DNA from: Escherichia coli
Lineage (GTDB): Bacteria; Pseudomonadota; Gammaproteobacteria; Enterobacterales; Enterobacteriaceae
Length of the DNA stretch: 64,000 nt
Reading direction: 5' to 3' (one strand)
NCBI RefSeq assembly: GCF_030384885.1
Contig: NZ_CP128614.1
Shown here one piece after another: positions 24,001 to 27,000 of the stretch. Position 1 is the first letter of the stretch, and each line of letters starts with the position of its first letter. A program made the position numbers.

Positions 24001-27000
24001 GTTGCGCACGTATTCGGTGAACGCACTATGGCGACGCTGGGGCGTCTTATGAGCCTGCTGTCACCCTTTGACGTGGTGATATGGATGACGGATGGCTGGC
24101 CGCTGTATGAATCCCGCCTGAAGGGAAAGCTGCACGTAATCAGCAAGCGATATACGCAGCGAATTGAGCGGCATAACCTGAATCTGAGGCAGCACCTGGC
24201 ACGGCTGGGACGGAAGTCGCTGTCGTTCTCAAAATCGGTGGAGCTGCATGACAAAGTCATCGGGCATTATCTGAACATAAAACACTATCAATAAGTTGGA
24301 GTCATTACCGGAGAATTGTATCATTAACAGTCTAGTTCTAACGACTACCACTTTTAAGTATGTATTGAGCCAGTTTTATATTCAGGCACACCATATTGCA
24401 CTCTAGCTCTTTCATCATTCTTGAAGAACTCTTAATTAAGTATTCTTCAAGTGGGCCAGCATATGCCCCTGATGTCACGATCGTTAGTTGCGTAAGAGGA
24501 TGAGTCAAACTCTCAATGCCCTTCAGGATGTCATTCTGGACAGCAGCAATATAAACAGGCGAAGCCGCAATCAAATATTCATCATTCGGGCTGGACTGCA
24601 TTAACTGGCTTATAGTTGCGCAACGGTTATGCTTACCTAGTGATTTTGTGATGGCTTTCCACCAGAGATCATGCCTGAATGGTACTTGATGAAATGTCGC
24701 CTCGTAAGAGGGCACCCGATCTCGACTATTTAAAAACCCCATCCCGGCAGAGATTATCCACAACTCCAGATTTCTGGTTGAGTTTAAAATTTCCTTTGCC
24801 GTAGACCAGTGATTACCTGAATACAAGGACAATGCCGGTACCGCCTGATTACTTCTGGCGTCGTCTACAATGTTACTCCAGGCATATGCTGCGTCGTCCG
24901 GGGTTTGTTTTGGATCTATGTCCAATGTCGGCCAGACGTGGCCCTGATGATTCTTGCCCTTTGTACAGGAAGTGATTAAGTGTACTGAGCGTTCAGAGAA
25001 CATTATCTTCCTTACATACCCATAGAACAGCTTTCTAAGAACGGTGGGCTCGCCTGAAAATTACAAATCAGCCCCTTTCACGGCATCATTTTGATTCTTC
25101 GCGTCTGCCCCCAGTAAGATGACCGGTTTTCTGCATGACAGTGTTATTCCTAACAAACGCAACACAAAACCACGCCAGCCAGAGCAAATTTTTTCATTTG
25201 CTGCGTAAAGCCTATTGTTTTCTCTTTTAAGCTTCGCCCACTCGTTACAGAGGGTAACATCATCAAGCGCTGTTATATGCTTCGCCTCACCTTCGACGAT
25301 AACGGTATGGATACCGTATGCTGTAAATCTCATACTATTTTCCAGAACCCAGTTGCGGTATTCGTCGAGTCCACCTTCGGAACCGGTAGCTCTGCGCCAC
25401 ATTTCAATTTGCTTGTGTGATGGGTCAAGTGTACTTGTCATTGAAGCCTCGTCTCAGCGATAACGCTTGAAATAGCCCGCTTTGGTCATCATGAAATTAG
25501 CCATCTGACTGGCGATTTGATTGTATCTTACTCATAGTGCCCTACCTATAGGTTAAAAAGGGGCATTTTCGCTTTATAGCGTGTTCAGCAGCATCAATCC
25601 TCCCAAGAAAGGCTGGCTTATTAAGCCGGTCCATCATTTTCTGTATATCTCTCATCAATTTTTATATCCGCCCTGGAGTGCACCGTTCAAGCACACCGAT
25701 TAGGCAGATAGTCACTAGTTAACTCTTTACTAGTGACTAAATTCCATTGATATACGTGACAACGTCACGTCATGAAAGCTTATAAATGCCTATTTTTCAT
25801 ACAATGGGATTTAATTAGGAGTAAATCCCATAGGCTTACATAAGGATGACAATTAAAAGCGTTAAATATCAACCAGATAGAATGATTACCCCCAATTAAT
25901 GGGCTCATCACATTATTTCACTGGCTGGGGTTATTGCTGGCATATCTGAAAGTGCTAATATGTTAGTCATTAGTAATTAGTAAAGCCTTTACTAAACGCG
26001 TTTCTACGTAAATTCTATAGGTTTTATAGTGTCCTACCTTTGCTCAAATCAAAATGTTCTGACATACCAAAATGGAGTGTAAAATGACTCAAAACCAGGG
26101 TTCTGAGCCAGTACCGGCGAGCCGGACAGGGCAGCTCATCAGCGCCCGGGATATGGCCATGCAGAAATTCGAAGAAGGGATGCGGTTAATCTCGGAAGCG
26201 TCGGAACTGTGCGGTCTCTCTCTCTTCACCAGCAGAATTATGCAGCCCAACGCATTTGGTCTTCCGTCGTCACTGGATCGCACCATCGAGGAGGGGCGTA
26301 AGGAAATTGACCGTAAAACGTGGAAAAGGCTCTTTGAAGAAACAGGTATGGACCGGTACTGGAACCATAAGCAAAAAGAAGCCTTTAACGAATCCCTTCG
26401 TACGGATCCGCCCGTCGCTTCCCTGGAGATTGTTAAGGGAACATTACAGCATGCACTGGCTAACAGACGAGACACCCTTGCAGAAGGTTTCGTTGATGTT
26501 CTCAACAAGCTTGACCGAAGTTTCAAAAGCAATGCCAGGCAATATACAATGCCAAAAAAGCTTGTTCTTCGGGGGATTTTTCCTGGTGTGAACGTGCTGA
26601 GGTACAACGGTTTCTCGCAGGACAATCACTTTTGTTTACGCGACTTTGAGAATATTGTATGCATCTGTTCTGATACTCCAACACCTGCAACCGGCGGTGG
26701 GCTGAGTATGGTCGACAGGCTGACGGCCATGAGAAATACAGAATTCACAGGCGAGGTCAGTGATGAGAATGGCTGGCGGTGTCGCCTGTTTGAGAATGGA
26801 AACGTTCATATTTGCATCGACAGTATCTCGCTTCTGAATGCTCTGAACGATCTTATCAGCATATATTTTGCAAACCAGCTTCCGGCCGCAGGAAAAAAAT
26901 GATGATTGAAAATGATAAAGAAAAAAGCCTGAACGATGCTACCCCGCCAGAGGTGCAGAATGACATCCGCAGCGAATCCACTGAAAAATCAAAGGAAATG

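Follow-up and report, generated by a model that had tools for sequence, protein, structure and literature searches.

In a 64,000-nucleotide stretch of Escherichia coli DNA (contig NZ_CP128614.1; hereafter the window), two minus-strand open reading frames (ORFs) lie between an IS1 element and a divergent intergenic region. An ORF of 126 amino acids (aa) (25061–25441, ATG start, TAA stop) is followed, after a 57-nt spacer of 19 codons (25004–25060, minus strand), by one of 221 aa (24338–25003, ATG start, TAG stop). The two share a reading frame (25441 − 25003 = 438 = 146 × 3), and the spacer holds the ribosome-binding site (RBS) of the 221-aa gene, AAGGAAG, at 25013–25007 on the minus strand, 3 nt ahead of its ATG. 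The end of IS1 (23542–24309) lies 28 bp past the TAG. Reading the sequence bears out each of these points as the initial annotation had given them: two ORFs at these positions, one frame with a stop and 19 codons between, a separate RBS for the downstream gene and an adjoining IS1. The region is a 100% match to IncHI2 plasmids such as pHS13-1-IncHI2. Judged by the homologues of each, both ORFs are more than chance frames, because the 221-aa protein has hundreds of homologues and a ratio of nonsynonymous to synonymous substitution rates (dN/dS) of 0.15–0.27, and the family that includes the core of the 126-aa protein numbers at least 249 protein clusters. What is new is that the 221-aa gene, by its sequence relationships, encodes an orphan, C-terminally shorter paralogue of the Dpd-island protein DpdC, widespread on clinically important plasmids.

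The 221-aa protein matches the PADLOC DpdC profile PDLC02818 (E=4e-59, 198 bits, profile positions 3–233 of 319), and six more DpdC models also match it. Against Pfam DUF6884 (PF21818) it scores 30.4 bits (E=5e-07, residues 50–175), passing the gathering threshold of 30 bits marginally. By BLASTP, residues 6–217 are 38% identical to P0056, a 318-aa island-encoded DpdC that is its closest long relative and that represents the DpdC of loci L019–L021. P0056 is a bona fide DpdC, scoring 529 bits on the DpdC profile, and its locus runs in the order integrase, DpdC, DpdA (682 bits), DpdB (540 bits), SNF2-type gene, helicase and DpdG. The alignment stops at residue 231 of 318, leaving ~87 C-terminal residues of P0056 unmatched, and two internal loop insertions of P0056 are absent from the 221-aa protein. 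At the other end, DpdC and every short homologue align from residues 1–6 of the 221-aa protein onwards. After a word-indexed search, a full profile search of 1.84 billion representatives with the 221-aa family returned 1,601 relatives. The full-length top relatives are bimodal in length, with 36 of 211–261 aa versus 111 of 290–344 aa, and a neighbour-joining tree gathers 30 short forms into one clade, with P0056 in its sister group. Taken as a sequence assignment, then, the protein is a shortened, stand-alone DpdC paralogue of the DUF6884 family; a literature search found no paper on an orphan plasmid DpdC.

Other resources place the protein in the same broad superfamily or return nothing. A fold search of BFVD returned phage DUF6884/YaaA-like proteins, and the predicted fold is of the YaaA-like ‘cantaloupe’ alpha/beta class. 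Neither ORF has a match in NCBIfam or PHROGs, the 221-aa protein has no match to PF03883 (YaaA/DUF328) at E≤0.1, a profile search of PDB sequences with the 221-aa family found none at E≤10, and Foldseek found nothing significant for its predicted structure in the PDB.

The initial annotation had found no placeable motif in this protein, a view that can now be set aside, since it carries the DUF6884/DpdC motifs CxxxK and [LI]SAGxG, as C13-T-K-G-K17 and I84-S85-A86-G87-M-G89, as well as a YxATF motif, Y100-x-A-T-F104. At 21 positions, conservation reaches 90% or more among the 111 long forms as well as among the 36 short ones; the 221-aa protein has 21/21 of them (C13, K17, W42, Y61, G63, W66, W82, S85, A86, G87, G89, Y100, A102, T103, F104, W115, S148, Y151, A154, D158 and L207). 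C13, K17, S85 and A86 are invariant across 17 homologues, which include short forms down to 35% identity. According to the Pfam curators, DUF6884 is related to YaaA, has a DNA-binding cleft and carries its putative active site in CxxxK and LSAxxG (PMC11701544). The gene is also under selection: dN/dS is 0.15–0.16 among IncHI2 variants and 0.27 in comparison with an Enterobacter ludwigii plasmid (L013), whose copy is 90% identical, intact and under purifying selection. A length of 211–245 aa and the stop position are kept over plasmid lineages that share only 35–60% identity, and the stop is the same in three IncHI2 plasmids without IS1 (L014, L025 and L027), so that the gene is not an IS1-truncated remnant. 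The short forms thus probably are working enzymes, with activity predicted from these features.

On its plasmids the gene appears without the rest of a Dpd system. Searching the window by tblastn with DpdA, DpdB, two helicase-type Dpd proteins and DpdG gave nothing below E=0.04. Across PLSDB, which is redundant for epidemic plasmids so that counts are of records and not of independent lineages, tblastn found the short DpdC-like gene in 3,023 of 72,556 records. The 968 at ≥95% identity correspond to IncHI2; none of the others reaches 60%, and among them are IncL/M plasmids such as pOXA-48 and virulence-type IncFIB/IncHI1B plasmids of Klebsiella. For DpdA the count is just 27 PLSDB records, one of them from Enterobacterales. 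The short forms are thus plasmid-borne, form one clade and in general have no dpdA or dpdB partners on these plasmids; a tblastn search of phage records with the 221-aa protein found no homologue.

The best-studied carrier is pOXA-48, where the homologue is Orf7, a 227-aa member of the short plasmid clade with 40% identity to the 221-aa protein, encoded downstream of orf9 (RelB-like) and orf8 (XRE) and beside mucAB, outside the mapped leading region. A published transposon-insertion sequencing (Tn-seq) study of pOXA-48 lists Orf7 without a conserved domain (PMC12365149) and, in its supplement, as non-essential for maintenance in E. coli K-12. After conjugation in E. coli MG1655, its log2 fold change of 1.03 (adjusted p 0.25) is near the values of its neighbours and is not significant (PMC12365149). 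We had considered the essential orf19–orf20–orf21 locus as the homologous operon and rejected it, as Table S1 and gene order point to Orf7. Elsewhere on pOXA-48 (L030 5838–9617; NZ_CP032174.1 35837–39616), an IS1-disrupted gene for a DGQHR-domain (DpdB/DndB-like) protein adjoins a DUF4942 gene, whose product is 23% identical to the DUF4942 protein of the window, and this region leads to klcA, ssb and mobA. IncL plasmids therefore carry DpdB-like and DpdC-like genes but no DpdA. The DGQHR gene was dropped as a candidate partner, being present on pOXA-48 with none found in the window.

A first word-indexed protein search had made the 126-aa ORF look like an orphan of IncHI2 plasmids, a result overturned by tblastn and profile searches. 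Some 2,400 non-IncHI2 plasmid records match its residues 32–118 at 46–57% identity in tblastn, the relatives being 84–88-aa hypothetical proteins of IncK/Z and IncFIB(K) plasmids. A profile search with the core of the ORF returned 249 clusters, one of which is named ‘YaeB protein’ by UniRef. Residues 37–105 constitute the YaeB-family core, with invariant positions throughout and an alignment that spans whole family members, and this ORF too therefore has the recognizable motif that the initial annotation had missed. The family start aligns with M37 (ATG at 25333–25331, in a conserved M-x-[FT]-[TG]), which would give a 90-aa product. GAGG lies 5 nt upstream of M1, M37 has no clear Shine–Dalgarno sequence and substitution counts are few; the real product may be the 90-aa form, judging from the family alignment. 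Its dN/dS of 0.32–0.74, again from few substitutions, suggests weak constraint. An AF2 model had a predicted local distance difference test (pLDDT) score of 47, unreliable for fold inference, and a profile search of PDB sequences with the ORF returned noise only.

The two genes travel separately. They are adjacent only in IncHI2, where both are present in ~970 records. IncHI-like loci at 58% identity have the DUF6884 gene without the 126-aa ORF, the DUF6884 genes of other IncHI-like, IncL/M and IncF plasmids have no yaeB-like neighbour, and no DUF6884 gene adjoins the yaeB-like genes of IncK/Z and IncFIB(K) plasmids. In L013 the small ORF lacks its first 147 nt and is frameshifted beside an intact DUF6884 gene. 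Two IncHI2 loci (L014 6001–6380 and L015 118–497) have the small ORF frameshifted near codons 72–78, at an A-rich run (AAAAGAGAAAAC), which could be a real mutation or a sequencing error. None of the relatives compared has a fused ORF, and the IncHI2 variants L025 and L027 keep both the stop and the 57-nt spacer, the latter with only 1–2 differences. Because the pairing is confined to IncHI2 and L013 combines a degenerate small ORF with an intact DUF6884 gene, the two genes are independent and a fused-ORF scenario is excluded. On this comparative evidence we describe two independent plasmid genes rather than the ‘cassette’ proposed earlier. The earlier view that they are separate genes, and not one gene split by a nonsense mutation, is strengthened by the DpdC alignments, which start at the N-terminus of the 221-aa protein; outside IncHI2, each gene occurs without the other.

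Upstream, the intergenic control region (25442–26071) is common to the two minus-strand genes and to a divergent, plus-strand DUF4942 gene (26072–26902; Pfam DUF4942, E=2.8e-26). An inverted-repeat search located palindromes at 25709–25739, 25754–25770, 25804–25831 and 25978–25994, and a hairpin at 25611–25631 lies between them and the small ORF. Among five IncHI-type lineages aligned, the repeat ATGGGATTTA-N8-TAAATCCCAT (25804–25831) and the palindrome TAGTAAAG/CTTTACTA (25978–25994) are kept in 5/5, and the other two palindromes in 4/5. Because the palindromes are conserved while the surrounding intergenic DNA has diverged, they are likely, as candidates drawn from sequence comparison, to be operators of divergent DUF4942/DUF6884 promoters. 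They lie directly upstream of the DUF6884 gene in lineages that lack the small ORF, such as L002 and L006; in IncHI2, ~600 extra bp, including the small ORF, stand between the palindromes and the DUF6884 gene. The two genes are probably read from one upstream promoter region. Placement of that promoter in the palindrome-rich stretch 25442–26083, as the initial annotation had it, is plausible given the conserved palindromes, but a strict sigma-70 promoter scan of 24200–26200 found 0 sites, versus 5.0 ± 2.3 expected from shuffles. The scanned region is AT-rich, with 38% GC in its intergenic part. A TTGAAC-18-TATAAA arrangement near 25690–25660 was seen by eye only and is not relied on.

The IS1 copy marks a deletion junction and not a simple insertion. 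It is flanked by CAGTTAAAG and GGAGAATTG, which do not form a 9-bp target duplication, and, relative to the IncHI2 locus L014, IS1 replaces 4,441 bp (L014 7141–11581) that encompass an H-NS-like gene, three small ORFs and a portion of an HNH-gene region. A search of the whole window found none of the replaced genes, so that copy of the H-NS-like gene has been lost from this plasmid variant. Just left of IS1 is a gene for an HNH_2-family endonuclease (271 aa; 22498–23313); farther left are a 441-aa ORF (20381–21706) that is probably hipA, by the position of an annotated hipA in the collinear locus L013, and a TerD/vWA-TerF protein (15955–17196), which indicates that the tellurite-resistance region is on this left side.

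The divergent DUF4942–DUF6884 arrangement recurs in the IncHI-type loci L002–L008, L013, L025 and L027. In these plasmids the DUF4942 gene is followed by a coiled-coil gene, and the DUF6884 gene is normally followed by small ORFs and an H-NS-like gene. In L009 a Tn7-like element stands in place of the DUF4942 gene and the DUF6884 gene persists. We regard the DUF4942 gene as conserved context of the DUF6884 gene and not as a demonstrated functional partner; no neighbour gene is common to all lineages of the DpdC-like gene. On the other side of the control region, an IncH backbone block (26072–33010) encodes the DUF4942 protein, a 401–430-aa coiled-coil protein, a DUF1173 protein, an orphan C5-cytosine DNA methylase (29954–31423), a thermonuclease (SNase) and a 326-aa protein without a Pfam match, in the same order as in plasmids whose proteins are only ~58% identical.

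An IncFII plasmid and a metagenomic contig have an operon of overlapping genes that encode a 405-aa protein, the DpdC-like protein and an SNase. The 405-aa upstream protein of L016 and L022 was dropped as a candidate partner, having no homologue in pOXA-48 or the window. SNase genes recur near the DpdC-like gene in several unrelated plasmid lineages, at 31557–32111 in the window (6.6 kb away), directly after it in L016 (8678–9172) and L022 (1368–1886), and adjacent to it in L010 (9073–9546). As a direct partner the SNase was also dropped: by visual inspection, all four start with signal-peptide-like segments and, if these N-termini are signal peptides, export of the SNases is probable and a shared intracellular DNA target unlikely.

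What might the 221-aa protein do? DpdC converts 7-cyano-7-deazaguanine (preQ0) in DNA to the 7-amido form (ADG) in vitro without DpdA or DpdB (PMC10164549), and the genera in which Dpd islands are most frequent, Escherichia, Klebsiella, Salmonella, Enterobacter and Citrobacter (PMC11888242), also host plasmids with the short gene. Its homology, the family-invariant residues, the fold class, purifying selection, the lack of dpdA and dpdB, the plasmid-wide spread and the independence of the two genes are shown by the data above; its substrate, chemistry and biological role we infer by analogy. With confidence about evenly divided, we propose that it is an active DNA-base-modifying enzyme with DpdC-type chemistry and that the 126-aa ORF encodes an independent YaeB-family protein. 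By analogy with DpdC and the YaaA/DUF6884 fold, the 221-aa protein could bind DNA in a positively charged cleft and flip the target base into a pocket lined by CxxxK and SAGxG. Because the short paralogue keeps the whole conserved pocket, the same nitrile-to-amide conversion is the most likely reaction, in which the nitrile of preQ0 already present in DNA would be hydrated to give ADG. The plasmid, having neither DpdA nor DpdB, could not let the enzyme start modification; the preQ0 in DNA would instead have to come from a Dpd island of the host or from the DpdA of a phage, and the plasmid enzyme would act only as an editor. Its role would then be conditional on Dpd hosts or phages, since it could only edit preQ0 placed by others, and the lack of a phenotype for pOXA-48 Orf7 in Dpd-free K-12 fits such a role. 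The upstream YaeB-family ORF would not be needed by the enzyme, and may simply have come, in the IncHI2 lineage, between the palindromic control region and the DpdC-like gene.

Several points weigh against this proposal. First, the substrate is deduced only from 38% identity to DpdC, the Pfam score barely exceeds its threshold and the tree of short and long forms carries no support values. Second, the ~87 C-terminal residues and two loops that are absent could be needed for DNA targeting or activity. Third, the plasmids cannot place preQ0 themselves, leaving the substrate absent in most hosts and making the wide conservation of the gene harder to explain. Fourth, some members of the DUF6884/YaaA superfamily, YfjM among them, have been proposed to target other lesions in DNA (PMC11701544). 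Finally, the co-transcription that we infer for the two genes is unaccompanied by any strict sigma-70 promoter in the scan.

The best-surviving alternative, which we consider possible but clearly the less probable account, is that the 221-aa protein is a YaaA/YfjM-like enzyme that binds DNA or processes lesions, with some base other than preQ0 as its target and no connection to 7-deazaguanines; such an enzyme might help newly transferred or damaged plasmid DNA. DUF6884 is a broad, YaaA-related family whose member YfjM turned up among interactors of abasic and RNA-base lesions (PMC11701544), and in two unrelated lineages, L010 and pOXA-48, the gene stands beside umuDC/mucAB translesion polymerase genes. 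The lack of a preQ0-inserting enzyme on the plasmids and the missing C-terminal domain of DpdC point the same way. By contrast, among long relatives the closest are island-encoded, bona fide DpdCs rather than YaaA or YfjM, the search for a Pfam YaaA/DUF328 match at E≤0.1 came up empty, and the retention of every DpdC-conserved residue argues for the same pocket and chemistry.

We think it unlikely that the short DpdC serves chiefly in counter-defence, with catalysis secondary, by mimicking host DpdC to titrate or block Dpd restriction proteins, or by sequestering preQ0, which would let unmodified plasmids survive on entering Dpd-positive recipients. In its favour, these plasmids live in the genera where dpd islands occur most often, the tree joins the short clade to enterobacterial DpdC as its sister, and pOXA-48 can spare its homologue in Dpd-free K-12. 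The IncHI neighbours also include an orphan C5-cytosine methylase and an H-NS-like gene, functions typical of plasmid stealth or anti-restriction. A pure decoy, however, would not need invariant catalytic-site residues, and the C-terminal domain that is missing is the likely protein- or DNA-interaction module of DpdC. The position of the gene outside the mapped leading region of pOXA-48 also speaks against it.

Far less probable is that the two ORFs form an obligate unit, such as a regulator–enzyme or toxin–antitoxin pair, or represent a single gene interrupted by a nonsense mutation. They do share strand and frame, lie 57 nt apart with no terminator-like site in a scan of the spacer 25004–25060, and occur together in ~970 IncHI2 records; elsewhere, too, the DpdC-like gene can follow a small DNA-binding-type gene, the XRE-type Orf8 gene in pOXA-48, and in L016 it is preceded by the 405-aa protein, whose N-terminus is winged-helix-turn-helix-like by inspection only. 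Against an obligate unit stand the restriction of the adjacency to one plasmid lineage, the small ORF deleted and frameshifted in L013 and frameshifted in L014 and L015 with the enzyme gene intact, and the yaeB-like genes that occur elsewhere without DUF6884; because the DpdC alignments start at the N-terminus of the 221-aa protein, there was no fusion to split. That the gene is a decaying, non-functional truncated dpdC from a former dpd island, as its match to only the first 233 of 319 DpdC profile positions and its place beside IS1 at a deletion junction could suggest, is scarcely credible in view of the 211–245-aa length and stop conserved at 35–60% identity, the dN/dS of 0.15–0.27, and a stop that precedes IS1 by 28 bp and is the same in the IS1-free L014, L025 and L027.

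Returning to the proposal of an active DpdC-type enzyme, we suggest more tentatively that enterobacterial conjugative plasmids (IncHI2, IncL/M including pOXA-48, and IncF/HI1B of Klebsiella) carry a trimmed DpdC to manipulate 7-deazaguanine DNA marks. Three uses are conceivable. The enzyme could finish or rewrite preQ0 marks carried by the DNA of the plasmid itself, letting it pass as self in Dpd hosts. It could blunt Dpd restriction directly. Or, against CAjan-type phages, it could convert the preQ0 marks in their DNA to a form open to attack by other nucleases. If the trimmed DpdC is such a tool, a single piece of a restriction–modification system would have been put to a previously unrecognized plasmid-versus-defence or plasmid-versus-phage function.

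More broadly, the 221-aa gene, for all its annotation as hypothetical, rides on plasmid families responsible for spreading mcr-1, OXA-48 and Klebsiella virulence determinants. An orphan DpdC paralogue predicted to be catalytically intact has a concrete, assayable activity, conversion of preQ0-DNA to ADG-DNA, and offers a testable link between major resistance plasmids and 7-deazaguanine DNA modification. It also raises the ecological idea that plasmids may interact with a Dpd defence system common in the same hosts. If this activity or interplay is real, it would be a new way for plasmids to handle DNA-modification-based defence; if not, the gene would still encode a well-conserved plasmid enzyme. 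Finally, there is an annotation trap, as defence-system finders will call these plasmid genes ‘DpdC’ though no Dpd system is present.

Comparison with known systems helps place both proteins. The YaeB-family proteins of IncI/K/Z and IncFIB(K) plasmids resemble residues 37–105 of the 126-aa ORF at 46–57% identity, whereas the IncHI2 ORF is 36 codons longer at its N-terminus and differs in its tail. For the 221-aa protein, the most distant comparison is E. coli YaaA (DUF328/UPF0246; PDB 5caj), a chromosomal peroxide-stress protein to which it is only 12% identical, with no DUF328 match, and of which CxxxK/SAGxG is not a defining feature. With members of Pfam DUF6884 such as Bacillus subtilis YfjM it shares both motifs and a stand-alone single-domain form, and it passes the family threshold marginally, but it is much closer to DpdC than to YfjM-type members. 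Because genuine DpdC scores 23.3 bits on DUF6884, below the Pfam cut-off, that model is centred on other subfamilies. pOXA-48 Orf7 (IncL) and its pCTX-M3 counterpart belong to the same short plasmid clade, although orf7 lies in an orf9–orf8–orf7 operon near mucAB and not beside a DUF4942 or yaeB-like gene. In contrast with DpdC of the Dpd system (Salmonella Montevideo type; P0056), which is ~300–325 aa at full length, the 221-aa protein lacks the C-terminal ~87 residues and two loops, and its gene belongs to a plasmid-borne clade of its own, without nearby dpdA (TGT-like), dpdB (DGQHR/DndB-like) or dpdD–K. Nevertheless, the homology to DpdC extends over the whole 221 aa at 38% identity, and the two share all the family-invariant residues (CxxxK, SAGxG and YxATF), a predicted YaaA-like fold class and Enterobacterales hosts.

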